This document shows, piece after piece, positions 38,281 to 56,988 of a stretch of DNA of 64,000 bases. Within the stretch, counting starts at the first letter, position 1; each line of letters starts with the position of its first letter. The notes under the pieces were generated by a model. It saw only the letters and a list, made by a program, of their open reading frames with translations. It did no database searches and was not told where the DNA came from. The position numbers and the translations under genes were made by a program. Source of the stretch: an uncultured Candidatus Saccharibacteria bacterium (lineage in GTDB: Bacteria; Patescibacteriota; Minisyncoccia; UBA6257; GWB1-50-10); NCBI GenBank assembly GCA_964365955.1, contig CAYISA010000005.1, positions 751 through 64,750 of the forward strand. The letters are read 5' to 3'.

Positions 38281-39387
38281 CTACAACTTGATTGGCATCA
38301 AAACGTAGACGAGTGATGCGTCATGTGATGAGCGGATCAGCGCCGGGCGTCCGGGCGTCGCCCCGATCACAATTTCGCTTTCTGCATAAATACGGAGGCC
38401 GTCTAAAATATATTTCCAGTTGAAGATTGCGGAAAAAGCGCCGCCTTTTATTTTTGCCGGAACTTTGTATCGGTTCTCCCCTAAAGCCCCGTCCGCCGAA
38501 TGCAGTTCTAAAAAGTTCTTCCCGTCTTTGACGTTCATGGAAATCCCCTGCGTTCGTCCCGCAAACGCGGCTGTGAGTTTTATTGCGTTAATCATTTCTT
38601 CACGATCCACCGTGAGCTCGTTTTCCACTTCTTTTGGAATCACTCCTTGATACTCTGGAAAATTACCATCAATGAGACGCGAAATAATTTGTCCTGCCGG
38701 CATCTTAAACAGGACTTGGTTTGGGTCGATAAAAATCTCTACCAGAACGTCGTTTTTCCCGAGCACGCGCAATAATTCTTCGATTGTTTTTTTGGGAATA
38801 ATCATGGAAATGGCCTCGAAAGAAGTTTCGATCTCTTTCGCTAGGACGCGCTTTTCGACAAGTCGAAAGCTGTCGGTTCCCACGAAAACCAGCGAGTCTT
38901 TTTCGTATTTGAACAACACGCCGCTGATTTCGGGCCGTATTTCGGAATACTGGACAGCGGCGGAAACGGCAGATAGGGCGTCACGGAGAATGCTGGAATT
39001 GATCTTAAAAAAATGTTTTGTGTCGTGCACAGAAGGAATGAGCGGGAAATCTTTAGGGTTATTTCCCTGAATCTCTGCTTCGTAATTATCCGTGGTAATC
39101 GTGATTTTTTTGCCTTCTTCGTTTATCGAAACGCGTTCCGATAAAATATTTTTTACAATGGAATTTAGAAGTAAAAATGGAATGGAGCATTCCCCATCTT
39201 CGATTATTTTACCCGGAACCGTGCTTTGCGTCGCAATCTCTAAATCAGTTGTCGTAAGAAGAATTTTGTTTTCAAATGCCCGCAACAAAACACTTTTTAA
39301 AATCGGAAGGTTTGCGTTCATTCCAACGGAGTGTTCTACGGCGGAAAGACTTTCCACAAGATTGTTTCGGAGTAGTACTAGTTTCAT
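38281..39387 (-). CDS. dnaN: DNA polymerase III beta sliding clamp.
   Basis: Three-domain clamp; N-terminus MKLVLLRNNL. Confidence 0.88.
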   Translation of the reverse strand: MKLVLLRNNLVESLSAVEHSVGMNANLPILKSVLLRAFENKILLTTTDLEIATQSTVPGKIIEDGECSIPFLLLNSIVKNILSERVSINEEGKKITITTDNYEAEIQGNNPKDFPLIPSVHDTKHFFKINSSILRDALSAVSAAVQYSEIRPEISGVLFKYEKDSLVFVGTDSFRLVEKRVLAKEIETSFEAISMIIPKKTIEELLRVLGKNDVLVEIFIDPNQVLFKMPAGQIISRLIDGNFPEYQGVIPKEVENELTVDREEMINAIKLTAAFAGRTQGISMNVKDGKNFLELHSADGALGENRYKVPAKIKGGAFSAIFNWKYILDGLRIYAESEIVIGATPGRPALIRSSHDASLVYVLMPIKL

Positions 39388-42731: not shown

Positions 42732-43898
42732 TTATTGTGATGCGAGGGAAAGTTCGTAAAGAAATCCGTCGTAACGGTTAATAAAATACAATTTTCCGGC
42801 GCGGGCGGTAACGTGTGAAGCGTCGATTGCCGGGAATGTTTCGCTAAGACTTGTAAAAATCTTTTCCGTTCCCGTGTCTTCGCTTGCCGAATAAAGATCG
42901 TCAACCGTGTAGAATTTTCGCATGAGGTAATCATCGGGAATGGTTGCCGGATTTTCTTTTGTCGAGAGCTCGCGGGGAACGAAACAGTAAACCGAAGAGC
43001 TTGCATAAGCCGCGCATTTCGAAGGAAACGTCGTGAAGATCACGGGAGTTTGGAGTCCCATTCTTTCGTCAAGAATCGAAAACTGGTTGGGGGAAAAGAA
43101 CATAAAAAGTGTTTTGAACGTATCGTCCCATCCGACCGTAAGCCCCCGCTCCCCCTGAACCAAAAGCGAGAGTTCTTGTGTTTTTAGATTCAGGCGCCAC
43201 AAACGCCCGTTTTGCAGGAACGACGGTTTTTCCGCGATAAGAAGCGTGCCGGGCGACTGTGGGATAAAATGAACGTCTGTAAGCCGAAAATCTTTTATAA
43301 CCGTAACATATTGGACGGGTGTGCGCGTATAGTCGAATGTCGCAAGAGACGGCAGACCGCCCGCCTGAACGATGCCCACAATCTCGTTTGTTTTTGTTCC
43401 CCATGCCGCCTCTTTTACTTCAGCCGGCAGGGGTCTCCACACCTTGTCCTGCGCGTCAAATACCCCCCATGAAGGCGTGAGCGGGCTTCCGAATGCCACC
43501 AGCACGCGCGTCCCGTCCGTGTTCGGGATTACGCGATTTAGCGTAGAGATGGTTTCCGTGGACACTTCAAGGTCGGGTCCGGATTTTGCGGACGCGATTT
43601 TCCCGTCGGGTTTGAAATAAAATACGTCTTCTCCGTTTTTCAAAACCCAGTAATCAAAAATAGGAACGTCCGAGATGCGGCGCAACACCGTTCCGCCTGC
43701 ACCCTTCATTTCTGCAGGGTATTCCTTTATCGGGGGCGCGGTGGGCGCAAACGGAAGCGATGATGTAGAAGAAGATTCGGAGGGAGGAACAATCGGCTCG
43801 CTTAACGCCTTCCAGACAAAATAACCCAAAAGAGCCACAAAGATTATTCCTACCGCTATAATTGTTATTTTAAATGAAAAGCGCATAAAGTTTAGCAA
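42732..43898 (-). CDS. Membrane-anchored protein of unknown function (last gene of the T4SS-like operon).
   Basis: N-terminal TM segment with a Ser/Pro linker. Its start overlaps the upstream pilin-like gene by 7 nt. Confidence 0.4.
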   Translation of the reverse strand: MLNFMRFSFKITIIAVGIIFVALLGYFVWKALSEPIVPPSESSSTSSLPFAPTAPPIKEYPAEMKGAGGTVLRRISDVPIFDYWVLKNGEDVFYFKPDGKIASAKSGPDLEVSTETISTLNRVIPNTDGTRVLVAFGSPLTPSWGVFDAQDKVWRPLPAEVKEAAWGTKTNEIVGIVQAGGLPSLATFDYTRTPVQYVTVIKDFRLTDVHFIPQSPGTLLIAEKPSFLQNGRLWRLNLKTQELSLLVQGERGLTVGWDDTFKTLFMFFSPNQFSILDERMGLQTPVIFTTFPSKCAAYASSSVYCFVPRELSTKENPATIPDDYLMRKFYTVDDLYSASEDTGTEKIFTSLSETFPAIDASHVTARAGKLYFINRYDGFLYELSLASQ

Positions 43899-44875
43899 GG
43901 ACGGATGTCATTTTGAATATCGGTCATTTCCGTGTCATTGTATAGATCGCAGTATCCAGTTACGGGATTACAGTTTGCTTCAGGAGAAGTTTGAGTCCCT
44001 CCTCTACCCGACGCTTGTAGTGGTTTTCTCCACGCATAGATAATACACCGAGCCCCCGTTTTGTTCGTATCACTCATTTTATAATAAGGATAGGTCCAAA
44101 CTAAGGAGTATGTTGGAATTTTTTCTTCATTCTCGGCATAAAAATCTTCATATATGGGTAGATTATCAGTAACACCGCCAAGTACATTTCCATAATTATT
44201 TCCTTCACCTTGTCTAAAAATATCACCAGACAAAGGACGAATTCCATGTGTTCCCATCCTCGTTCCGTCTAAATCTAAAGTGAGAATTATTTTCCCAGGG
44301 CATGTTGTAGTAGCCATCACGGTTCTGGGGCAAGCAATGGCTGATGGAACACACCCGCCGCAAGTCGCGCTCTGTTGCGTGCCCGGAGTGGTACAAATAT
44401 CCACGCATACTGATGGAGTATCTAAATACTCACCGGTTGGACCCTTTGGATTGCAACGATATTGTCTAGCAGGACATGCCAAAGAAGGGTCTTCGCGTAC
44501 GCTAAGCGTTTTAAGCTGCGGATTTACGGTATTCAGGATAAGCACCGCTCCGAAAAGAAGCGCCACACCCCAGAGTGCAGAAAAAATCATGTCTTTTGCA
44601 TCATTTTGAACATCCGGTTTTCCCGCAGAGGTTGCATAACGAATACCTCCCGCGACGATCATAAGCATTGCGAGCGCGCCGGAAATCCAGAGCGCAAACG
44701 TATAAAAATTCTGAATGTATTCCGCGATGGGATTGGTGTTTTTTGAAAATCCGGCATTCGGATTCGCGAAGCTTAAATCGATATTCGTTGCTCCAAATGC
44801 GGGCAGGACAAAACCGAGCGCCAGGATTCCTACATTCGCTATCAAAAACCATTTTGCGATTTTTTTGAGCGTCAT
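43892..44875 (-). CDS. VirB2/TrbC-like pilin-topology protein with a long Cys-rich C-terminal extension.
   Basis: Signal peptide ...PAFGA, then two hydrophobic helices separated by the short polar loop GGIRYATSAGKPDVQ (TrbC/VirB2 topology). Then ~200 aa containing 14 or more Cys. Confidence 0.45.
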   Translation of the reverse strand: MTLKKIAKWFLIANVGILALGFVLPAFGATNIDLSFANPNAGFSKNTNPIAEYIQNFYTFALWISGALAMLMIVAGGIRYATSAGKPDVQNDAKDMIFSALWGVALLFGAVLILNTVNPQLKTLSVREDPSLACPARQYRCNPKGPTGEYLDTPSVCVDICTTPGTQQSATCGGCVPSAIACPRTVMATTTCPGKIILTLDLDGTRMGTHGIRPLSGDIFRQGEGNNYGNVLGGVTDNLPIYEDFYAENEEKIPTYSLVWTYPYYKMSDTNKTGARCIIYAWRKPLQASGRGGTQTSPEANCNPVTGYCDLYNDTEMTDIQNDIRPC

Positions 44876-44878
44876 AAG

Positions 44879-45604
44879 TTATTGTATGGTTAATTGAAAA
44901 CGTTCCTGCGCGAACTCCAACGGGTTCGAAAGATTTTGTGCTAAAAGATTTATTTGGAGCGTCCTGTCGTATTCTGACGCAGGTGTTCCGACGCCAAGCG
45001 AAAGCGTATTTTCCCCTTGCGCTTTTTTCTGCTCGCCGTTAATAGTCCAGGTAAAGTAAAGATCGTTCAATGTTTTGATATTCCAGAAAAAAGGAAATGC
45101 CTCGAGTAAAAAACGACTCTGCGACGCTACGATTTCGAGAGGCAATGGGATGTTTGCAACGATTTGGGGCGAAAGGACGGGAACCTGGAGAGAAATTTCC
45201 CGGATGTTCTCTTGGTCCATGAGACGCGCTGTCGCTTTTATTGTGACGGTTTCACCCGCGATAGATTTAGGCGTGAAAAGAATTTCTTTTTTTCCATCGC
45301 CACGGTCCATAAGTTTATCATTTATGAACCACGTAATGGTTACGCGCGACAGATCTAAAAATTTTCCGCCGCGAAGTGCTTCCAAGGACGCGGTGATCGG
45401 CGTCCCTGCCGTAGGAAACACCTTTCCTTCAAAAAACGACGGATAGAAGTTATTTGCTCTCCAGGTAAGAAAAAACTGGGTTGGGGGGGGTGTTTGAGCG
45501 CGCGCTGTGTGAAGAATTCCCCCAGCCAAGAAAACGGCTGTCCCCAAAAAGAGCGCGGCGAAAGAAAAAATTAAAAATTTCATAGGTGACTTCTTATTCA
45601 TCAT
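44879..45604 (-). CDS. Secreted protein of unknown function.
   Basis: Signal peptide; no recognised family. Confidence 0.4.
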   Translation of the reverse strand: MMNKKSPMKFLIFSFAALFLGTAVFLAGGILHTARAQTPPPTQFFLTWRANNFYPSFFEGKVFPTAGTPITASLEALRGGKFLDLSRVTITWFINDKLMDRGDGKKEILFTPKSIAGETVTIKATARLMDQENIREISLQVPVLSPQIVANIPLPLEIVASQSRFLLEAFPFFWNIKTLNDLYFTWTINGEQKKAQGENTLSLGVGTPASEYDRTLQINLLAQNLSNPLEFAQERFQLTIQ

Positions 45605-45987
45605 ACAACAGTTTTCGTTGCGATTTTAGCGGCAGGACCGCCTTTAGCCGCCACTTTTTCTGTGATAGCCGCTAATTTCGGATTGTTGTGGATAAATACC
45701 TCGATAAGAAAGGGAATGGTTATGGTAAACGCGGTAATGATAATCGGAGTTACCGGAAGAAGATTTAAACCATATTTAAGAATCTGTTTGCCAAGTTTTG
45801 TAGCATTGGGATCACCTTTGCTTCTAAACCACATGGTGATGGCGAATGTAGCAAATCCTTGGATGACAGGAGCGATGATAACTCCAACTCCCGTGATATC
45901 AATAAGAATACTTATTCCATCGACGCCGAGCGCAAAGAATGTTCCGATGATTATCTCACCCGCCCCAAATTTTTTATGTTCATCCAT
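45601..45987 (-). CDS. Small polytopic membrane protein.
   Basis: Three to four hydrophobic helices; 4-nt overlap with the next gene. Confidence 0.4.
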   Translation of the reverse strand: MDEHKKFGAGEIIIGTFFALGVDGISILIDITGVGVIIAPVIQGFATFAITMWFRSKGDPNATKLGKQILKYGLNLLPVTPIIITAFTITIPFLIEVFIHNNPKLAAITEKVAAKGGPAAKIATKTVV

Positions 45988-46001
45988 ATTCTCTTAATAG
46001 A

Positions 46002-47774
46002 TCATTTTTGTTCTTTGGCGTTTTCTTCAAGCCCTTTAATCTCAAGCATCTGTTCGGGGTTTGTAGTGACAATCTGATCCTCGGTGTAAGACGCCACCAC
46101 TTTAATGGCAACGTGTTTTAAGCCGGCAAAAAAGAGTCCTTCGCCGACCCCCGCCTCCAAAAGAAGTGTCCGTTCCCCTTCTGTCAGGTCAAACGCTTTC
46201 CCGACCGCCTCGATCGATGTTGGCGATTGTTTCAGAAGAAATTGCAAGGATGAGTTGGTGATAATCGGGCGGCCGTAATCCGATTTGATAAAATCTTCCA
46301 CGTCTTGGGTGATGGTGGTAATGCCCAAGAAATATTTTCGCGCGCGTTTCACCAGTCCGAACAAAAACGACGCGCTGTCTTTGTACTTCATCATCCACCA
46401 CGCCTCGTCAATGATTAAGAGTCGGCGTTTCAGTTGCGATCGAACAATGCTCCACACGAAGTTCAGGACGATATACATAGCAATCGGACGGAGTTCTTCT
46501 TCAAGGTCCCGAATCGAAAAAACAATCAACCGATTTTTAATATCGATGTTGGTGGGTGCATTGGTGAATCCCGCATAAGAACCATGCGTAAATTTTTCAA
46601 GGCGCTGCGCCATACTCTGTGCACCGGCGGAATTTTGCAGAATCACCTGCAAATCTTCAAGAAGCGGCGGATTCATTTCTTTGTTCAGGCCGAAATTTTC
46701 CGCCGTAATATCACGCGACGCGTAGGTTTCGGTAATCGCGCGGTCCAAAATCGCGTCTTCTTCCGGCGTTACGGCAGTGAGCATCAGTTTTAAAAGACCC
46801 GTCAAGTTTAGCACATGTGATTTAAACACGTCGCCGGGTTCTTCGCCTTCCGGAATCACGGGAATGTCGAATGGGTTGATGTGGTTCGGCGACGTAAGTG
46901 AGATTTTAAAATAGCTTCCGCCGATCGCGTTCGAGAGATTCGCATACTCATTTTCTGGATCAATCACAATCACATCCGTTCCCATCATCATGGAACGCAG
47001 GATTTCTAGTTTGGTCGTGTAGGATTTTCCGGAACCGGATTTTGCGAAGACCACGGAATTTGCGTTTTCAAGCGAGAACCGGTCAAAAATAATCAAACTA
47101 TTGTTATGCATATTGACCCCGTACAAAATTCCTTTGTCGGATGTGAGATCAGGCGAAACAAAAGGAAAAATAGAGGCGGCGGGACCGCTATTCAAAGGCG
47201 TGGTGACTTGAAGCGCATCTTCTCCTTGCGGGAGCGCGGAGCGGAAACCCTCGAGTTGGCGGAAGAGCGATTGCTTGATGTATACCAGGCGGGACTCCAG
47301 CATGTTTTCCACTGTATTTTGAAGTTTATTTAACTCTTCTAACGTGCGGCCGTAGATAGTGATATAGATTCCCACACTGAAGAGTTTTTCCCGCGCTTGT
47401 TGTAAAGCGTCTCGGAGCGTTTCCACGTCCTGAAACGCGGTTTCAAGCTGGGGATCGCGCACTAATCCTTTTTCATCGCGTTCGGAAAGTTCTGCTTGGA
47501 ACTGCGTGACTTTTTTGCGGAGATTCTTGAGAGCCAAGCTTGTATCCATAGGATGCACGAAAATCGAAACATCCATCATTTCGGGCAGGTTAATGATCGG
47601 AGAAAACCAACCGGTCGAGATAAAGCGGGGATAAGTGAATACAAACATCGAGCGCGCGAAAAAGTCCCCTATTTTTATGAAATTCGGGCTTATTTCGAGT
47701 CCCGCGGGCGCGATCACATTCGGAAGGTCCTCGGGGGATGCCTGATATTCTTTGGGGATAGAAAGAGAAGACAT
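46002..47774 (-). CDS. VirB4/TrbE/TraC-family conjugation-type ATPase (C-terminal 590 aa).
   Basis: Walker A VVFAKSGSGKSYTTK and Walker B LLIIDEAWWMMK (the DEAW signature of VirB4-like ATPases). The conserved linker region IKIGDFFARSMFVFTYPRF is present. Confidence 0.8.
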   Translation of the reverse strand: MSSLSIPKEYQASPEDLPNVIAPAGLEISPNFIKIGDFFARSMFVFTYPRFISTGWFSPIINLPEMMDVSIFVHPMDTSLALKNLRKKVTQFQAELSERDEKGLVRDPQLETAFQDVETLRDALQQAREKLFSVGIYITIYGRTLEELNKLQNTVENMLESRLVYIKQSLFRQLEGFRSALPQGEDALQVTTPLNSGPAASIFPFVSPDLTSDKGILYGVNMHNNSLIIFDRFSLENANSVVFAKSGSGKSYTTKLEILRSMMMGTDVIVIDPENEYANLSNAIGGSYFKISLTSPNHINPFDIPVIPEGEEPGDVFKSHVLNLTGLLKLMLTAVTPEEDAILDRAITETYASRDITAENFGLNKEMNPPLLEDLQVILQNSAGAQSMAQRLEKFTHGSYAGFTNAPTNIDIKNRLIVFSIRDLEEELRPIAMYIVLNFVWSIVRSQLKRRLLIIDEAWWMMKYKDSASFLFGLVKRARKYFLGITTITQDVEDFIKSDYGRPIITNSSLQFLLKQSPTSIEAVGKAFDLTEGERTLLLEAGVGEGLFFAGLKHVAIKVVASYTEDQIVTTNPEQMLEIKGLEENAKEQK

Positions 47775-47777
47775 AAA

Positions 47778-48419
47778 TTATTTTTTTGCGACCTCGATTC
47801 CTTTCTTTTCGACCAGCCCGGGATTGTAAAGATTATAGAAAAGCTCGATCAGTTCCGCGTCTTCCAAGGGTGCCGCCCGAAGACCGATTAATTCGAGTCC
47901 GCTCACCACCTGATCCACGCGATGGGTGAGCTGCTCCAGATTGTTCTGTAGGTTCGCTTTCTGCTCCGTGGAAGACGTTTTTTGAAACAGTCCAAAGAGT
48001 CCCGCGCCCGAACTGCCGGACGAAAGCGACGGAGGATCATACGGCACCACCGTAAAAAATGTCTTATTGATAATCGCATTTTGATCCACAAATGTGCGGA
48101 TAAATTCGGCATATTCGTCAATCTGGATTTTCAGGAGTTCGTTTTCTTCCTCTTCTTTCCGCTTTTTTACCCGCGCGAGATAATCGTCAATGTTCATTTT
48201 ACGCGAGTGGATGAGAAACTGTAGTGAAAAGTCGAGTGAGTTTAAGAAATTTTGGAACGTATTCAGGATAAGCGTTTGTTCTTCTTCGGATTTCAGATCG
48301 AAATTTACGCCGCTCACGATAATAATCTGGCGCAAACCGCCGTTTTTGAGGTACACAATCCCCTCTTTTATGTTTTTTACGTCTACAAATTTTTGTGTGG
48401 GGAGTGTAGGTTCCGACAT
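47778..48419 (-). CDS. VirB4 N-terminal-domain-like protein (213 aa), in frame with the ATPase ORF across a single TAA.
   Basis: The N-terminus resembles the start of Gram-positive-type VirB4 proteins (…VDVKNIKEGIVYLKNGGLRQIIIVSGVNFDLKSEEEQ…FLNSLDF…). This recognition is from memory only. Confidence 0.5.
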   Translation of the reverse strand: MSEPTLPTQKFVDVKNIKEGIVYLKNGGLRQIIIVSGVNFDLKSEEEQTLILNTFQNFLNSLDFSLQFLIHSRKMNIDDYLARVKKRKEEEENELLKIQIDEYAEFIRTFVDQNAIINKTFFTVVPYDPPSLSSGSSGAGLFGLFQKTSSTEQKANLQNNLEQLTHRVDQVVSGLELIGLRAAPLEDAELIELFYNLYNPGLVEKKGIEVAKK

Positions 48420-48435
48420 GGATACGGTTATTGTA

Positions 48436-48957
48436 TCAATAGTCCATACGCTTCGCGAGTTTGCGCTCTCCAGTCAGATAGGTGACGACCTGATACTGGT
48501 CCTTTTCTTCTTCTTCTTCTTCTTCTTCTTCGCTGTGGCCCCGGAACGCATCCATCGAGAATAACTTTCCGGTGGAGATGCCGAGCGCAACCGATTTGAT
48601 TTTTTCCTGGATCCTCATGCGTTGGCGCAGCGCCTCAAGTTTTTCGATATGAGAAACGTCAACCGTGGCTTTTGGAATTTCACGTTGCCACAGATAACGG
48701 CGCGGGTTCCACGCGAACACGAAAGCGTTTTTTAAGAATTTCGGGAACGGCTGTCCGTTGATTTCTACGAACGCGAGCGCAATAGCGAACCCTGCGACGA
48801 AAATAGAAAGAACAATCCATGCGCCGAAGGAGAAAATATAGAAAAAAATAAACGAAACAATTCCAGCCACGCCGACATAGAAAAGCTGTATCAATGTCAG
48901 AAACCCGACAATCTTCGCTTTTTCCTCGATAAATTGTGGGACCTGAAATGTTGCCAT
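48436..48957 (-). CDS. PrgI/VirB3-like small two-TM protein with a poly-Glu tract.
   Basis: The N-terminus ATFQVPQFIEEKAKIVGFLT plus two TM helices lie immediately upstream of VirB4. An E9 run is encoded by (GAA)9. Confidence 0.4.
   Translation of the reverse strand: MATFQVPQFIEEKAKIVGFLTLIQLFYVGVAGIVSFIFFYIFSFGAWIVLSIFVAGFAIALAFVEINGQPFPKFLKNAFVFAWNPRRYLWQREIPKATVDVSHIEKLEALRQRMRIQEKIKSVALGISTGKLFSMDAFRGHSEEEEEEEEEKDQYQVVTYLTGERKLAKRMDY
48505..48531. repeat. Perfect trinucleotide microsatellite: (TTC)9 on the plus strand, (GAA)9 in the minus-strand coding frame.
   Basis: Nine tandem TTC units read directly from the sequence. Confidence 0.95.
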
Positions 48958-48971
48958 AGAAAATACCGGTT

Positions 48972-49868
48972 CTAACGGAGATCCACCACGTTCCCTTCAA
49001 TGCGCGGAGTCGGTTTTTCTTCTAGTTTTACTTCCGGCACCTTGATTGGGAGCGGAGCCCCAGAGAGAGGGGTAGGTGCGCGAGAAAATCCCGACAAACT
49101 TCGCGGAAGCGGTTTTGCGTTGGGGTTCGGTTTTTGAGGCGGCGTGACGGGCGGAAATCCTATCGAGGCAATTGGTGTTACGGGAGTTTTGGTCTCGTCA
49201 TAATGTACGACGCGTTGCGTTTTCGGGATTTCCACTTCCACGCGCGCGGGCGCTCTTTCCCCCGAGGATTGGGGCATATTCGATTTAAAGAATCTGAACG
49301 GAAGCGAAAACCCTTTCCGGTCTTCCTTTGAAGTTGTTTCCACCGCGCTCTTTTCTTCGTGGATAATAAACGGCTTGATCTCTTTTTCGCCGGCAGAGGT
49401 GCTTTGCTGTGTAACCGATACGGCGCGAGGAGTCATCGCCCCACTTTTCCCGGGAAAGAAATCCAACGACACCTTTGGGCCGTTTATTTTTTGCGATTGT
49501 GGTACGGCAGACGCTGTTTTTTGAGCCGACTCCTCCTTAAGGGGAGAGTATCCCTGTTCCAGCTGTTTCTGAATCGGAAAAAAAATCTTTTTTTCGAGTT
49601 CATCCACCAGCGCGCGGGAGTGATCGAAGTTCAGAAACAACTCTTCGCTCACAAAATGCGCCAATTCGCGCGTGTGAATGAAGCCAAGAAGCGCGAGCCC
49701 CACCAACTGTTCAAAAATCTGCAATTTTTCTTCGTTCAAGTACTGTGTTTTCCCGATGGTGCGAATAATCCGTCCGTCTTCTTCGGAATTCAAGACGCCT
49801 TGCACCGACTCCGGCAGGGAGTCATATCGTTCCAACATTGCGTCTTGTGTTAGGAGTTGGTAGTTCAT
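48972..49868 (-). CDS. Hypothetical protein with a Pro-rich C-terminus.
   Basis: ORF in an operon context; no family recognised. Confidence 0.4.
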   Translation of the reverse strand: MNYQLLTQDAMLERYDSLPESVQGVLNSEEDGRIIRTIGKTQYLNEEKLQIFEQLVGLALLGFIHTRELAHFVSEELFLNFDHSRALVDELEKKIFFPIQKQLEQGYSPLKEESAQKTASAVPQSQKINGPKVSLDFFPGKSGAMTPRAVSVTQQSTSAGEKEIKPFIIHEEKSAVETTSKEDRKGFSLPFRFFKSNMPQSSGERAPARVEVEIPKTQRVVHYDETKTPVTPIASIGFPPVTPPQKPNPNAKPLPRSLSGFSRAPTPLSGAPLPIKVPEVKLEEKPTPRIEGNVVDLR

Positions 49869-49874
49869 GGGGTG

Positions 49875-52457
49875 TTATGGTGTTGGCGGTGTTGATCCTG
49901 GTGGTGGATTCCCTCCCCCCTGTTTTTTCTTCAGCTCATCTTGTGCGTCGGACGCGGCGTTTTGAAGTTCTGTGATCATAGCGATATCTTCGGGTTTGGT
50001 CATATCAAGAATTCCCGCGTTTTGAATGCTTGTTATTTGATTCGCAAGATCCTTAACACGCTGATCCCACTCCGCCGCGCCCTTCGGTTTTTTGACCCGA
50101 ATGTTCTGGAATGTATCAATCGTCTGCTCAATTTTCTTTATTTCCGCGTCTTTTATGTCAGCCTGTGTTTTATTTCCGTCACCAATATATTGGTCCCTCT
50201 GCTTTTTGAGAGTTTGCATATGGGTTTCCCATTTCTTTTCGGCCAAGAATAATTTTTTATCTTCCTCATTAAAGCGCCGAATCTGCGCGTCCAAACTCTT
50301 AATTTTTTCGTCATATGCCGAAGACGGAACCATTTTATTTTCGATCTGCTTATCGCGTAACGCGGCGATCTCTTTCTTCTGCGCCTTTGCTTCCGCCGCC
50401 GTTTCCGGTTTTCCATGTTCTTTATCGCGGCGATCCATAAGAGAGTATTCCTGATACTCCAAAGCCTTCTTTTCTCTTTCAAGCCGAGGCTTATCAAGGG
50501 ATGATGCAACGTTGATCTCTTTTTGTTTGTCATTGCTCTCTTCCGTCACGCGATCTATTTCTTCTTCGATTGCCGGACCCTCCAGTTTTCCTTGCATCTT
50601 GCGGAGCTGCGCCTCGCGCTCCCGCGGATCTGTGTAGTTTGTTGCCGTTTTGTGGATGCGTTGTGCTTCCTCGTTTGCGGAGTCGGAGTCTTGTATCTTA
50701 TTCTGCAAAGTTCCAATCTGCGACTGTGTTACGCGTTTCTGTTCGGTAAGTCTCTCGATCTGGTCCTTGTCTTTTGTTGCAGAAATCGCAGCATCAATTT
50801 TTGTCAGGTCGTCGTGAAGCGTGTTAAGTTCGCTGTCTACCAAAGTGGTATTCGACGGATCAATCTGTGCATGCAGTTCATCCCGCTGTTTGTTGATTTC
50901 TTTCTGTCCTGCGCCGGCATAACCCTGTTGTTCCGTGGCGTCCGTAATACGCTTTGCGGCTTTCTCTTGTTCCGTTGCGGAGAGTTTTTCTTTCGGTTTT
51001 TCCTTCTCTTTGAAAATTCCCGCGCTCGTCAACATATTACCCATAACAGATCCTGGGTTGATTTTTTCCTGTAGCGCAAGGTTTTTGGTGTATTTTTCAG
51101 CTCCTTTCAGCGTGGCGCCCACACCGCCTTTCTTTGCGTCGTACGGTCGTATTCCTAAAGCAGACGTCGTAACGTTGGATGCAACTGCCGCGATTTTACG
51201 CCAGCCTTTCATATTCTTTGTATCAAAGCCTTTCTCAAGTTTCTGTAAGCGTCCACCAAGTTTTCCAGCTCCTGTCGCCAGTTTCTGTCCCATTTCCGTT
51301 TGCGCGACTCTTTTTTGATACAACGCTTTCGTACGCGCCCCCGCGTATTTTCGCAGACCCTTCCCGCCGTCTTTTGCCATTTTGACTGCCGCGCCGGCAC
51401 CCTCAATTCCCATTTTGTCCGCCACAATCAAACCGCCCAACATCACGCCCGCAACGATAATCATCTGAACGCCCTGTTGCATGATGCCACCCAAGACTCC
51501 GCCCAAAAAACCTCCGGCAGCCGCGCCGCCCATCGAACTCATTCCCGCTCCGCCCGTTCCCGCGAGTTTCGCAAGCTGTTTTACGGACGCAATTGAAAGA
51601 AACATGAAAAAAGTTGAGGCGGGAGCGAAAAATGTCCATTTCATAAAATCGTGCCACCATTTGCTGTACTGGCTTGAAAGCGGCGGAAATACCCAGAAAA
51701 GCCAGACAAGCGGCGAAAGAATCGCAAGGAACGAGAGATGTAAGAAACGGAGGAGCAGAAGAAACGCGAACGCCAAAAACACGAATGTCGCAAGAAGCGT
51801 AAAGACCATGGTAAACACAAGCCCCGCAACGGAGCTCAATGCTCCGACCGTAAGCGAAGTAAGCGCGCCCTCTTCTTCCGCCGGGTTTGGCGGTGCTGGG
51901 TCTTCTTCGCCGATCAGAAATTTTTGTGGACCGAATGCATCCGCAAGTGTGCCCGTGAGACCACTCGGACCCACACCCGTTCCCGTGGTCGTCTGTTTGA
52001 TGAAAAAATTAGTTATCGTGTTTGAAAAGTTCACAAAAACGGCCATGAGCGGCAAACTGAAGTTCACGATAATCGCCGCGGCGATGAGCTTCGGCAGAAG
52101 TTTTTTAGCGGCATAATCGCGGTACCGGACAATCGTGGAAACCGCGATGATAATGATCACGATCACAAAACCAAGGTTCGCAATATCGCGCACAATCGGC
52201 CAACCGACTGTCACAATCGTATTCCCTTTTCCGAGCACGCCCTGATTGATATTCAGCATCACATCCACAAGAAACGCGGCAAGCTGGAACAGGACCGAAA
52301 AAATGAAGTTCAGAATATACGCAAGAATTTTAAATGCGCCAATAACAATATCCGTGACGCTACCAAACGGCCAGACAGCATGCGTTACTGACGGCGTGAT
52401 CAAAACCATAAGCGCGAGTCCGGCTACAATAAGATATTTTTTAGGAATACGTTTCAT
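49875..52457 (-). CDS. VirB6/TrbL-like polytopic membrane protein with a long C-terminal coiled-coil and a Pro/Gly tail (860 aa).
   Basis: Eight or more TM helices in the first ~330 aa. It sits upstream of the VirB3/VirB4 analogues, as PrgH/VirB6 does. The C-terminus is a charged coiled-coil ending GGGNPPPGSTPPTP. Confidence 0.45.
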   Translation of the reverse strand: MKRIPKKYLIVAGLALMVLITPSVTHAVWPFGSVTDIVIGAFKILAYILNFIFSVLFQLAAFLVDVMLNINQGVLGKGNTIVTVGWPIVRDIANLGFVIVIIIIAVSTIVRYRDYAAKKLLPKLIAAAIIVNFSLPLMAVFVNFSNTITNFFIKQTTTGTGVGPSGLTGTLADAFGPQKFLIGEEDPAPPNPAEEEGALTSLTVGALSSVAGLVFTMVFTLLATFVFLAFAFLLLLRFLHLSFLAILSPLVWLFWVFPPLSSQYSKWWHDFMKWTFFAPASTFFMFLSIASVKQLAKLAGTGGAGMSSMGGAAAGGFLGGVLGGIMQQGVQMIIVAGVMLGGLIVADKMGIEGAGAAVKMAKDGGKGLRKYAGARTKALYQKRVAQTEMGQKLATGAGKLGGRLQKLEKGFDTKNMKGWRKIAAVASNVTTSALGIRPYDAKKGGVGATLKGAEKYTKNLALQEKINPGSVMGNMLTSAGIFKEKEKPKEKLSATEQEKAAKRITDATEQQGYAGAGQKEINKQRDELHAQIDPSNTTLVDSELNTLHDDLTKIDAAISATKDKDQIERLTEQKRVTQSQIGTLQNKIQDSDSANEEAQRIHKTATNYTDPREREAQLRKMQGKLEGPAIEEEIDRVTEESNDKQKEINVASSLDKPRLEREKKALEYQEYSLMDRRDKEHGKPETAAEAKAQKKEIAALRDKQIENKMVPSSAYDEKIKSLDAQIRRFNEEDKKLFLAEKKWETHMQTLKKQRDQYIGDGNKTQADIKDAEIKKIEQTIDTFQNIRVKKPKGAAEWDQRVKDLANQITSIQNAGILDMTKPEDIAMITELQNAASDAQDELKKKQGGGNPPPGSTPPTP

Positions 52458-52463
52458 GTGGTG

Positions 52464-54284
52464 TTATAGCGAACAGGCGTAGGGACCGGCTTGGCACGCT
52501 CTTAACCGCGGATTTACCGTGGACGAGGCAACCGTGTTGATGTCGAAGCTAAAGCTCGGAACGATGGTAGTGATGATATTCTCTACAGAAAGATAAACAT
52601 TATTTACGACCGCAACCAGTTCTGTAAGCGATGCAACGGAGATAGCGGGGTCGTTCGCGGCAGTGCGGACTTGCTGAAGCTGGCCGGAGAGCGTTTTTAA
52701 CGAATCCAACTGGGATTGGATCACGTTTGCGCGGGTCGTGTTATTTTTTGCGATTGTCTCTGTGCTTGCACAAGGGAAGTCGGGATAGAGACCATCGGGA
52801 TCTGGAATTTTTATTTTTTCACACGCAACCAAAAGTGTTGTGGACGCAATCAAACGGTTGTTCAATGGCGTGAGTATGGGGAGCGGTGAACTAATCGTCA
52901 AAAGCGAAGAACTTGCGACGCGCATGCGCGCGGTAGTTAAGGCAATCGTCTTTGAGATCGCGTCTTTTAGCTGTGCGCTGGGGTCGAATGAGGTTCCGTA
53001 CTCGCTCCCATACCCGCCATAACGCTGATCACGCGGATCACGGCTATTATTCCACGTTTCCGAAGCGCGTCCCGTACCGCTCTCGCTCGAGAGGTTGTTC
53101 GAATCTCCACGAAGTCCTTTCACCCCTTCTTTGAATAGACGATTAATTGAGGCGTCAAAAATGGCGGAGATGTAGGGGGCAAGATCATCTGCGTTAGCAA
53201 GTAGTTGTATATCAGGTTGTATAAGCGCCTGATTTGTAAGACTTGCAACCGTTGTTCCAGGAACAGTGACCTTTTCTTTGGTACACTTCCACGTTGATGC
53301 GCTAACTGCCCCGGCTCCAACAGGAAGAGCTGTAGGTATAAATCCTTGACGCGCGGCGTCTGTATCATAAAAATTATCGTTCCAAACTGGACCGTTAGGA
53401 CCGTAGGGATTAGGAGAATTATCCGACCGCATGGATTGTGGATGTACAGAGTTATCTCCAAGGCGAAGATCGCGTGACCACTCGTAACACGCTTTTTCGT
53501 CTGTGTATCCGCCACCGGAATTTAATGCGATGCGATCCGCCTCCGCTTTTTGCGCCTGCAGTTTCGACGCCTGATCGACTGCCAGAATTTCGAGCCCCCA
53601 GCGATTATTCTGCGGCTTCAGCACTTCGTTGTATCCAACCCAGCCGCCCGCGCGAAAGTCACGGTTAAAATCCCCCACGTTTTTTACGACATCCGTAAGC
53701 GTGCAGTTCACCTGTTCTGTAAATGGAGCGGGTTGTTGAAGTTGCAGTTGCAAACGTGCCGTTAGACTGCCGGAACAGAGATTACTAAATCCCAGCGCCT
53801 CTACGGTCTGTCCGATGGATTCATCGGCGGTATCTTTTAAGAAACCTCCAAAATCATCAACGAAACGAGGTTGTCCGCTACCATCGTCCTTTATCCAAGC
53901 CACAACATCGTCGGTCATTTTATCCAAAAGGCGTTTTTTGAATTTCTGAAGAGCAACCTTCGCTATTTTATCGGTGACATATTTGATGCAGTTTTTTAAG
54001 CCCTCTTTATGGGCAAGATTGCGCAGTTCAGCGTCCTTTACAGCATCTTCTCCGCCGCCAAAAAGACCGCCAAGAACACCGCCAATAATCGGAATGCCTT
54101 CAGCAATTTTACTTAGACGATTTTGGATCTGTGCGAACAAAAGGTCGAGCCCGAGATCGGACAAACAATCCTTCCCAGGGTCGGGATCCGCAGCGGAGAC
54201 GTTACGGGGAATTATTCCAATTCCAAACGCGGTCGCAAGAATCGCTACAAGGAGAACGCCGGATAGGGCGCGCGTAGGTTTCAT
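52464..54284 (-). CDS. Large secreted protein of unknown function (606 aa).
   Basis: Signal peptide; no recognised catalytic motif. Confidence 0.45.
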   Translation of the reverse strand: MKPTRALSGVLLVAILATAFGIGIIPRNVSAADPDPGKDCLSDLGLDLLFAQIQNRLSKIAEGIPIIGGVLGGLFGGGEDAVKDAELRNLAHKEGLKNCIKYVTDKIAKVALQKFKKRLLDKMTDDVVAWIKDDGSGQPRFVDDFGGFLKDTADESIGQTVEALGFSNLCSGSLTARLQLQLQQPAPFTEQVNCTLTDVVKNVGDFNRDFRAGGWVGYNEVLKPQNNRWGLEILAVDQASKLQAQKAEADRIALNSGGGYTDEKACYEWSRDLRLGDNSVHPQSMRSDNSPNPYGPNGPVWNDNFYDTDAARQGFIPTALPVGAGAVSASTWKCTKEKVTVPGTTVASLTNQALIQPDIQLLANADDLAPYISAIFDASINRLFKEGVKGLRGDSNNLSSESGTGRASETWNNSRDPRDQRYGGYGSEYGTSFDPSAQLKDAISKTIALTTARMRVASSSLLTISSPLPILTPLNNRLIASTTLLVACEKIKIPDPDGLYPDFPCASTETIAKNNTTRANVIQSQLDSLKTLSGQLQQVRTAANDPAISVASLTELVAVVNNVYLSVENIITTIVPSFSFDINTVASSTVNPRLRACQAGPYACSL

Positions 54285-55127: not shown

Positions 55128-55931
55128 CTATTTTTGCGGACATCCGAGTGTTTTTGTAAGTGCTATAATGGTTTCAACCGATAGATTCTGCGGGCGGCTG
55201 TTTGCAGGAACAGAAAGATGCGCTAATGCTTTGATGACGGCGGTTTTTTTCGCGGGGTAGGCAAAAACAAGGTTGTTCAAAACCGTCTTTCTCGGTTGCC
55301 GGAAGAGATTGCGGACGAATAAGAAGTAATTTTTCAAAAAAGAATCATCGGGAATCCCGGGTTTCGAGTTTAACTCTATGACGGCGGAGTTCACGTTGGG
55401 CTGTGGCGAAAAATAGCGGGCCGGAATTTTTAAAATGAGTTTGGGCGTTGCCCATATCTGGAGCGTAGCGGCCAACAGATTCATGCGTGGCGGAAGCGCA
55501 ACGATCCGTTCCGCTACTTCTTGCTGGATCGTAAACACCGCGCGCGTCGGCCGTTTCGGCAAATCTCCCAGCAGGCGGAATAAATAACCCGTGAGGTAAT
55601 ACGGGATATTCCCTATGACCTTAAAGCCATTTTTGTTTGAAAAACGCGCGACAACGCCGGGAAGTTCTTTTCGGACATCTCCTTCCCTTACAACCAAATT
55701 CGGAAAGCGCGAAACCGGGAATATCCTGCGAAGCTCCTTTGCGAGGCGCGCATCCTTTTCGATTGTGAGAAGGTGAAGTTTCGGAACTTTCTCTAAAAGC
55801 GCGCGCGTCAGTTCGCCGTGACCCGGACCCACTTCGATGACCGCGTCTTCGCCGGTTGGTTCAAGCGCATCCGCAATTGCGAAGAGAGTCGGGTGGTGCG
55901 TCAAAAAATGTTGTCCTAATCGTTTCGGCAT
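55128..55931 (-). CDS. ksgA: 16S rRNA adenine dimethyltransferase KsgA/RsmA.
   Basis: LGQHFL N-terminal motif and SAM-binding VIEVGPGHGELT. Start taken at MPKRLGQHFL. Confidence 0.85.
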   Translation of the reverse strand: MPKRLGQHFLTHHPTLFAIADALEPTGEDAVIEVGPGHGELTRALLEKVPKLHLLTIEKDARLAKELRRIFPVSRFPNLVVREGDVRKELPGVVARFSNKNGFKVIGNIPYYLTGYLFRLLGDLPKRPTRAVFTIQQEVAERIVALPPRMNLLAATLQIWATPKLILKIPARYFSPQPNVNSAVIELNSKPGIPDDSFLKNYFLFVRNLFRQPRKTVLNNLVFAYPAKKTAVIKALAHLSVPANSRPQNLSVETIIALTKTLGCPQK

Positions 55932-55986
55932 GTTATATTGGGGTATCAGTACTATTCTAAGCCACATTTTGGAATACGGTAAGCGA

Positions 55987-56988
55987 ATGCTTAAGACGAC
56001 CACACTTTGGTCGATTGTTTTTCTGTGTATCGCGGTATCGGGGAGCGTTGCTTTTTCCGTGTTGGTGCGCAAGGGCAGTACGTTGGAAGAGATCTATCGC
56101 GTGGAGGGAGGTCTCGCAAACGGAAATGACGACTTTTCTTTTGCAGTAGGAAGACAGGGAATAGGAAACGGGCATGCCACTTTGGAAGCGATGCGCTTTG
56201 TATCTATGGACGGGTCTCTTCTTGCGTCCCTTTCCCCTTTAACGAACATGATTGCTTCGCGGAACGGCCTGAAGCGGTACACGGTGCAGAAAAAAGATAC
56301 GCTCGCAAAAATCGCCTCGCAATTCAATATCGATGTGGCGACCATCAAGGCGGCGAATCCGGGTATTCGCTCGGGGCTTCGTCCGGGGCAGCAAATCAGC
56401 ATTTTGCCTGTTTCGGGCATCGTGTACGACGTTGTGGAAGGCGATACGGTGGAATCACTCGCGTTAAAATTCCATATGGAACCCGATCTTTTCAGGCGTT
56501 ACAACCCCGATTTTCAGAAAGTTTTAGTAACGGGCCGCGGAACGCTTATTTTACCGAACGTGAAACCGGATACATCGCTCATCGCCAAAAAAGAAGGGGC
56601 GCTCCCCGATCTAAAAGGCTATTTTTCGCTTCCCGCGAAAGGATGGAATTGGGGCGAGCTACACGAAAAAAACGCGGTGGATATCGCGAATAAATGCGGA
56701 ACGGAAGTATACGCATCGGCGGACGGAGTGGTGGTTCCGGATGACAAGTTCGGCGAAGGTGCGGACGGGTGGAATGATGGATACGGCGTTTTTGTTTTGT
56801 TGGAACACCCGAACGGCACGCGTACGCGGTACGCGCATTTGGGACGGGCGCTCGTGACGGTGGGAGAAGAAGTGAGTCAAGGAACCATCGTGGGCGTGAT
56901 GGGGAACACGGGGAACACGCACGGACCCAGCGGGTGCCACCTTCATTTTGAAGTGCTCGGCGCAAAGAACCCTTTCGCTATTCGCTGA
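55987..56988 (+). CDS. LysM-domain plus M23 family metallopeptidase.
   Basis: LysM region YTVQKKDTLAKIASQFNIDVATIKAANP, and the M23 motifs HxxxD-like and GCHLHFEV. Confidence 0.8.
   Translation: MLKTTTLWSIVFLCIAVSGSVAFSVLVRKGSTLEEIYRVEGGLANGNDDFSFAVGRQGIGNGHATLEAMRFVSMDGSLLASLSPLTNMIASRNGLKRYTVQKKDTLAKIASQFNIDVATIKAANPGIRSGLRPGQQISILPVSGIVYDVVEGDTVESLALKFHMEPDLFRRYNPDFQKVLVTGRGTLILPNVKPDTSLIAKKEGALPDLKGYFSLPAKGWNWGELHEKNAVDIANKCGTEVYASADGVVVPDDKFGEGADGWNDGYGVFVLLEHPNGTRTRYAHLGRALVTVGEEVSQGTIVGVMGNTGNTHGPSGCHLHFEVLGAKNPFAIR

Follow-up and report, generated by a model that had tools for sequence, protein, structure and literature searches.

A divided VirB4, very probably supplied by two adjacent genes, in a chromosomal type IV secretion operon of a Candidatus Saccharibacteria bacterium

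In plasmid pGO1 of Staphylococcus aureus, the prototype of the MPF_FATA class of type IV secretion systems (T4SSs), the small gene trsD (227 aa) is followed after a 14-nt gap by trsE, which encodes a VirB4-like protein of 672 aa. Across Patescibacteria, homologues of TrsD, which resemble the N terminus of VirB4, are known to be encoded beside virB4 (Quinonero-Coronel et al. 2025, Microb Genom, PMC12102498); 2,272 such homologues were counted in the phylum, 1,664 of them associated with virB4, and the loci often lie near dnaA, dnaN, ksgA, and rpmH, a setting at the origin being reported for Paceibacteria. In that article, the TrsD homologue of Ca. Southlakia epibionticum is listed as essential on the basis of transposon sequencing (Tn-seq; Wang et al. 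2023, cited there). VirB3-VirB4 fusions are stated to exist elsewhere, e.g., in some Campylobacter and in other T4SSs, with none found in Patescibacteria. The likeness of TrsD to the VirB4 N terminus is cited from this source, as Guglielmini et al. 2014 (PMC4027160) do not name TrsD in their main text, and it was tested independently below with profile models and a predicted structure; the only literature matches for TrsD together with TrsE were unrelated papers on antibiotic biosynthesis. Here, we analyzed a 64,000-nt stretch of DNA (the window; contig CAYISA010000005.1 of GenBank assembly GCA_964365955.1, positions 751 to 64,750) from an uncultured Candidatus Saccharibacteria bacterium. Two consecutive open reading frames (ORFs) in it, ORF1 (213 aa) and ORF2 (590 aa), are very probably two real, separately translated chromosomal T4SS genes of this Paceibacteria/Jorgensenbacteria-like genome, which jointly supply the VirB4 that is one polypeptide elsewhere.

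The minus strand reads ...GTC GCA AAA AAA TAA TTT ATG TCT... at the junction, the end of ORF1 being separated from the ATG of ORF2 by its TAA stop and a single TTT codon (Table 1). The A7 run at 47781-47787 simply reflects the Lys-Lys pair that ends the conserved C-terminal ...IAKK tail. An earlier note, made from the sequence alone, had described this arrangement, and the positions of TAA, TTT, and ATG, the A7 run, the ORF coordinates, and the common frame were all confirmed; the note did not identify the pair with the known TrsD-like/VirB4 type. The locus shares with the patescibacterial T4SS of PMC12102498 the phylum, the neighborhood of PrgI/VirB3-like, TrsD-like, VirB4, and VirB2-like pilin genes, and the location next to dnaA, dnaN, ksgA, and rpmH; no essential difference was found, a small protein homologous to the VirB4 N terminus being encoded beside virB4 in both. 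The split arrangement is real, functional, ordinary, and already described. The text of PMC12102498 contains no occurrence of "split," "fission," or "shorter" and no discussion of linker fission or of fused variants in sister clades; the present analysis adds the exact break, in a linker inside the N-terminal region, its occurrence at the same point in Staphylococcus, the Bacillus group, and Patescibacteria, and the observation that split VirB4 and fused VirB4 exist side by side in sister clades.

In pGO1, the start of TrsE falls at the same place in the fold as that of ORF2, TrsE residue 33 aligning with ORF2 residue 16, whereas TrsD has remote sequence similarity to ORF1; moreover, pGO1 is a conjugative plasmid system with a relaxase and a coupling protein, whereas the system in the window is chromosomal and lies beside replication genes, with no relaxase seen in its vicinity. 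A PrgI-family gene, an unannotated N-fragment (274 to 328 aa), and a VirB4 ATPase (621 to 661 aa), with an overlap of 11 to 14 nt, are also present on plasmids of Pontibacillus (NZ_CP062975) and Bacillus thuringiensis Bt407 (BTB_502p). The ATPase found there shares 35% identity with ORF2 over the full length and has the same start point, and the N-fragments are 26 to 30% identical to ORF1 but exceed it in length; these systems reside on plasmids of cultured monoderms. Full-length VirB4 proteins (R388 TrwK, the CD1110 family, and fused Parcubacteria homologues of ~790 aa) have the same overall fold, and their single-chain models match the two ORFs in collinear order; these proteins are one polypeptide, whereas the chain in the window is cut at a linker. 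The VirB3-VirB4 fusions likewise point to evolutionarily plastic gene boundaries at the VirB4 N terminus; however, they join neighbors, the opposite of fission, and PrgI is separate here.

The comparison of the junction in related genomes suggested by the earlier note was performed with 80 related loci from species-representative metagenome-assembled genomes. Both parts were visible in 58 loci, and exclusion of the window itself left 57, of which 52 encode two separate proteins, 4 encode a fused one, and 1 is cut off by the end of its contig. The N-terminal ORF (N-ORF) is intact and directly upstream of the ATPase ORF in 52/52 split loci, the exception in adjacency being L048, where a gene lies between the two. 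The geometry of the junction varies: ATGA overlaps (7 loci), TAATG (2), and TAAnATG (6) occur beside gaps of 2 to 28 nt and spacers of 43 to 476 nt, and the N-ORFs stop with TAA (31), TGA (13), or TAG (8). At 12 of the 52 loci, the ATPase ORF begins in the frame of the preceding stop, the other two frames being represented by 20 loci each. Because the ratio is 12:20:20, frame sharing is no more frequent than expected by chance, and the common frame of ORF1 and ORF2 is, judged from these sequences, a coincidence without function. In the closest relative found (88% identity in the ATPase), the junction reads TAAtttgcATG and is out of frame. Among the near relatives, all 37 ATPase ORFs start with ATG, at the same position as ORF2, and are 577 to 596 aa long. 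A search with a fused query listed, among its matches, 57 ATPase-only proteins (582 to 593 aa; 77 to 100% identity) and 63 fused proteins (778 to 809 aa; 59 to 63% identity). The expectation of the earlier note that N-domain and ATPase form one polypeptide in homologues thus holds for the distant homologues with 59 to 66% identity and fails for all closer ones, which are split. Its proposal of a genuine split VirB4 is strongly supported by the 52 split loci and by the six assemblies described below. Of the observations that the note had named as refuting, separate proteins are indeed encoded consistently by the orthologues, which speaks against readthrough and against mutation or error, whereas a conserved ribosome-binding site between them is absent.

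ORF2 carries the Walker A motif AKSGSGKS and the Walker B motif LLIIDEAW, with the catalytic motifs intact. It matches the Pfam families P-loop_TraG (1.3e-28), AAA_10, and DUF87, all above gathering scores, and positions 186 to 733 of the 752-position NCBIfam model NF045971 (VirB4-like conjugal transfer ATPase, CD1110 family), scoring 370 bits (cut-off, 325). The proteobacterial model TIGR00929 gives only 98 bits and does not reach its cut-off of 643; ORF2 is therefore assigned, on the basis of these profile scores, to the monoderm-type VirB4 branch and not to the VirB4/CagE subfamily.

The two ORFs are collinear and complementary on every VirB4 model, namely, VirB4_CagE (ORF1, 18-174; ORF2, 250-725), CD1110 (7-119; 186-733), and VirB4_plasma (104-230; 287-891), and ORF1 covers positions 26-126 of the TrsD model. 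With the Pfam family TraC_F_IV (cut-off, 28.1 bits), ORF1 (16.1) and ORF2 (22.3) both fail alone, whereas a conceptual ORF1+ORF2 fusion passes with 38.2 bits in one stretch, residues 152 to 396, which runs across the junction at 213/214. The N-terminal VirB4/TraC domain is thus present, divided between the two ORFs rather than contiguous with the ATPase. The crystal structure of the VirB4 C-terminal domain (4AG5) aligns from residue 420 of the fused homologue P0003, corresponding to approximately ORF2 residue 207. As the model positions and this alignment place the ATPase from about ORF2 residue 207 onwards, the break lies inside the N-terminal region and not at the boundary between N-domain and ATPase. 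The earlier note had called ORF1 the N-domain and ORF2 the ATPase; according to the profile and structure alignments, ORF1 is only the first N-terminal module, and ORF2 comprises the second module (~205 aa) plus the ATPase. Specifically, the break corresponds to residues 220/221 of P0003, a mostly irregular linker with values of 54 to 67 in the predicted local distance difference test (pLDDT), between two well-folded α/β modules of the AlphaFold2 model (pLDDT 75.9), which matches R388 TrwK/VirB4 over its full length. The position was taken from pairwise local alignments, a MAFFT multiple alignment having misplaced the terminal residues of the fragment sequences.

All of the best 120 database matches of ORF1 are stand-alone proteins of 209 to 227 aa, and in public records its homologues are mostly labeled "hypothetical protein." PF26593 ("TraC-like") is present in the precomputed Pfam annotation of ORF1 and of all best 120 homologues; the model was not returned by the local hmmscan, whose copy possibly does not contain it. 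AlphaFold2 yielded a model of ORF1 with a pLDDT of 76.9, in which the last 15 residues (199 to 213) are disordered. Judged from this predicted model, ORF1 has the fold of the VirB4 N-terminal domain: the top 14 Foldseek matches in the PDB are all chains of R388 TrwK/VirB4 (probability 1.00; TMq ~0.5; 179 to 205 aligned columns), and nothing significant besides these was found there. The NCBIfam TrsD/TraD model NF041427 recognizes ORF1 with an E value of 4.5e-9 and 36.4 bits, below the curated cut-off of 200. This model was used as the signal because the hhalign comparison of the ORF1 family with the single TrsD sequence of pGO1 (E value 0.0089, probability 4.6%) is too weak to be useful. In position, ORF1 corresponds to TrsD/TraD, being a small gene directly upstream of a short VirB4-like ATPase with the same break point in the fold. 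Since 36 bits are far under the cut-off of 200, ORF1 lies outside the narrow staphylococcal subfamily; it is a remote homologue and positional equivalent of TrsD. For small upstream ORFs of this type, the annotation should instead read TrsD-like N-terminal module of VirB4.

Programmed readthrough of the in-frame TAA, giving a fused full-length VirB4 as the functional product, was considered in view of the shared frame, of the mere TAA and TTT between the ORFs, and of fused homologues at 59 to 66% identity. The in-frame arrangement, however, is found at fewer split loci than the one-third expected by chance and is absent from the closest relative; other relatives have ATGA or TAATG overlaps or spacers of up to 476 nt, one of which holds a whole gene, and the 3-nt gap leaves no room for a promoting structure. 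UAA followed by U is, in addition, the strongest termination context in bacteria. Neither a conserved frame nor a leaky stop context was found among the orthologues. Frames, overlaps, and spacers thus contradict the readthrough option of the earlier note, and we regard it as highly improbable. Slippage on the A7 run, whether transcriptional or ribosomal, was rejected, the ORFs being already in frame with the stop between them and a shift of +/-1 leaving the ATPase frame. Reassignment of TAA in the genetic code was likewise rejected, as the earlier note had anticipated: TAA, TGA, and TAG all serve to close the N-ORFs of relatives at this position, and housekeeping ORFs (dnaA, dnaN, and PNPase) have normal lengths under translation table 11.

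A recent nonsense mutation that turned virB4 into a pseudogene might explain why a single stop breaks a chain that is continuous in some homologues, but it is scarcely credible here. The split is common to a clade of at least 93 sequences and to more distant clades, and ORF2 has its own ATG where all split orthologues start, with intact catalytic motifs. The relative conservation of ORF1 equals that of the corresponding part of fused proteins, and 51 columns are invariant in an alignment of 53 homologues of its family. Specifically, the ratio of N-part to ATPase-part divergence is 1.81 in split genomes versus 1.60 in fused proteins, and constraint on the N part is therefore not relaxed. Thus, neither a lineage-restricted disruption nor relaxed constraint, as expected of a pseudogene, was found. 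An error of sequencing or assembly could be suspected from the A7 homopolymer adjoining the stop; an indel in the A run, however, would shift the frame and not yield TAA. The exact ORF1 protein is present on 11 contigs, and the junction DNA, aaaaaaaTAAtttATG, is identical on all six independently assembled contigs that were read, which stem from different runs and assemblers (ENA ERZ1292638, ERZ1292626, and ERZ1292640; Logan assemblies of ERR3858135, ERR3858116, and ERR3858133). As these six contigs include variants with 99.96% identity, an assembly error is very unlikely, and its probability is practically negligible. Mutation and error, which the earlier note had offered as a third option, are hence both at odds with the comparative data and the six independent assemblies. 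An in-frame stop in a "VirB4" is easily labeled as a pseudogene, a recoding event, or an error of assembly; the one described here belongs to the normal gene structure of a machine whose essential role in the epibiotic life of cultivated Patescibacteria has been reported.

At least two population variants, 99.96% identical across both genes, occur together in the groundwater samples labeled Hain_H43 (L081 versus L082, L083, and L085); the called start of the upstream 288/298-aa gene also differs between them.

Shine-Dalgarno (SD) sequences at canonical spacing were found for none of the T4SS operon genes (43892-54284) and for few of the 61 larger ORFs of the window. The predicted duplex energy with the anti-SD sequence has a median of -2.8 kcal/mol, the regions 5' of the starts are A/T-rich, and initiation in this genome seems, from sequence, to be largely SD-independent. 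Since the operon genes lack SD sequences, the missing ribosome-binding site before ORF2 is normal for this genome; among the split orthologues, no conserved intergenic ribosome-binding site exists between N-ORF and ATPase ORF. In 27 of the 37 near relatives, the junctions measure -17 to +14 nt, including 10 stop/start overlaps (7 ATGA, 2 TAATG, and one of 17 nt). Close stop/start overlaps are a classical signature of translational coupling.

We propose that the break falls in a flexible linker, ORF1 representing the first α/β module, equivalent to TrsD of pGO1, and ORF2 the second module plus the ATPase. Both genes would be carried on one polycistronic mRNA. ORF2 would most probably be started by the ribosome that has just terminated on ORF1 (termination-reinitiation coupling), or else by SD-independent initiation on the A/U-rich leader; reinitiation is suggested by the ORF2 ATG 3 nt past the ORF1 UAA, the missing SD sequence, and the close junctions of the 27 near relatives. 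The two proteins would then re-associate noncovalently into a VirB4-like protomer, which may dock on the PrgI/VirB3-like membrane protein and power the machine. A start of ORF2 that is independent of ORF1 translation, by SD-independent binding of the 30S subunit to the unstructured A/U-rich leader AAAAAAAUAAUUU, is a possibility of some weight, though the less favored one. Such initiation is the norm here, as operon genes and most window genes lack SD sequences, and in 12 of the 52 split relatives, a spacer of at least 43 nt separates the genes; the close junctions of 27/37 near relatives, ten of them overlaps, argue against it, as do inverted repeats in four long-spacer relatives, which join stop and start at the base of a hairpin.

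Some points weigh against two coupled genes that together provide a TrsD-type divided VirB4. Physical re-association and reinitiation are steps that we infer, and the spacers of at least 43 nt indicate that tight coupling is not obligatory. Readthrough of the UAA at a very low level is possible, judged from sequence. Finally, "TrsD-like" denotes only remote homology together with the same position and the same break point, given 36 bits versus a cut-off of 200 and the weak hhalign match.

A neighbor-joining (NJ) tree built from the ATPase part shows a monophyletic near split clade (at least 93 sequences), with the fused forms beside it and more distant split clades outside. In this crude tree, midpoint-rooted without an outgroup, the Fitch reconstruction of the root is "split," and the fused proteins form one block, sister to the near split clade. 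Split and fused forms occur in sister clades, the polarity of fission and re-fusion being left to a midpoint-rooted NJ tree that is not robust. Only tentatively, we consider that the pair of TrsD-like protein and short VirB4 is ancestral in Patescibacteria, perhaps in all monoderm MPF_FATA-type systems, and that the ~790-aa chains of one Parcubacteria subclade were re-fused, or that the same linker was cut repeatedly; a free N-module might then occur in other than 1:1 stoichiometry or help, as a factor in its own right, to assemble or dock the PrgI/VirB3-like protein. If so, nature would have dissected the VirB4 N-terminal region in these genomes. The locus L037 (Candidatus Wolfebacteria) is split and nested in the fused clade on very short internal branches, which is due either to noise in the tree or to a separate fission or fusion.

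The T4SS operon is located on the minus strand at 43892-54284 and is tightly packed, with junctions from a 7-nt overlap to a 16-nt gap (Table 1). The order of PrgI gene, N-fragment, and ATPase is also found on BTB_502p and in L081-L087. Scans with Pfam and NCBIfam gave no match for the operon-linked ORFs of 298, 860, 606, 276, 128, 241, and 388 aa. The 606-, 860-, and 298-aa genes probably encode putative membrane components of the same T4SS, and the operon-linked ORFs without a family match are candidates for VirB6-, VirB8-, or VirB1-like components of the patescibacterial T4SS. Because it is flanked by dnaN, dnaA, and ksgA, the operon presumably lies at the replication origin.

Table 1. Features of the T4SS operon and its surroundings in the window.
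Feature	Coordinates	Strand	Description
ORF1	47778..48419	minus	213 aa; first module of the VirB4 N-terminal region, TrsD-like; PF26593 "TraC-like"
ORF2	46002..47774	minus	590 aa; VirB4 N-terminal region, second module (~residues 1-205), and RecA-like VirB4 ATPase domain
ORF1/ORF2 junction	47772..47780	minus	TAA 47778-47780, TTT 47775-47777, ATG 47772-47774; 3-nt gap, same frame
PrgI-family (VirB3-like) membrane protein gene	48436..48957	minus	Pfam PrgI 6.5e-08, above gathering score; immediately upstream of ORF1
VirB2-like T4SS pilin gene	43892..44875	minus	Pfam T4SS_pilin 3.2e-08, above gathering score; downstream end of operon
Two small operon genes, 128 aa and 241 aa	44879..45987	minus	After ORF2: 14-nt gap, 4-nt overlap, 3-nt gap; order kept in L081-L087
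Upstream operon gene, 298 aa	48972-49868	minus	From ORF list; syntenic in L081-L084
Upstream operon gene, 860 aa	49875-52457	minus	From ORF list; syntenic in L081-L084
Upstream operon gene, 606 aa	52464-54284	minus	From ORF list
Operon-linked ORF, 276 aa	54281-55111		From ORF list
Operon-linked ORF, 388 aa	42732-43898		From ORF list
dnaN	38281-39387		Flanks T4SS operon
dnaA	39566-41032		Flanks T4SS operon
ksgA/RrnaAD	55128-56072		Flanks T4SS operon

In four species, the stop of the N-ORF and the ATG of the ATPase are separated precisely by inserted elements of ~105 to 130 nt, which are bounded by inverted repeats CCCGT(T/G)AGA(G/A)...CT/TTCTAACGGG (L009:3870-3997; L017:3875-3994; L025:3887-3994, with more copies near 2531 and 5757; L058:3869-3988, with a further copy near 2611). 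On folding, they give long hairpins (-34 to -40 kcal/mol), in which stop and start meet at the base of the stem. The same elements are present at other intergenic junctions of the same operons; single arm matches occur in L001, L023, L026, and L030, and none was found in the window. Judged from sequence features, they look like palindromic elements of the MITE/REP type in Patescibacteria. In L048 (1301-1776; Candidatus Jorgensenbacteria RIFCSPLOWO2_01_FULL_45_25b), the spacer between the two halves contains a 136-aa gene of the PD-(D/E)XK nuclease family (PF13366, E value 1.3e-17), which is flanked by the inverted repeats ACGAACAACACGAAC/GTTCGTGTTGTTCGT and appears to be a small mobile insertion. 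The spacers of L060, L065, and L078 (71 to 138 nt), which belong to more distant split lineages, contain a different inverted-repeat element, with arms such as TGTCATTGCGAGG...CTCGCGATGACG and TTGTCATCTCGAG...CTCGGGATGACAA.

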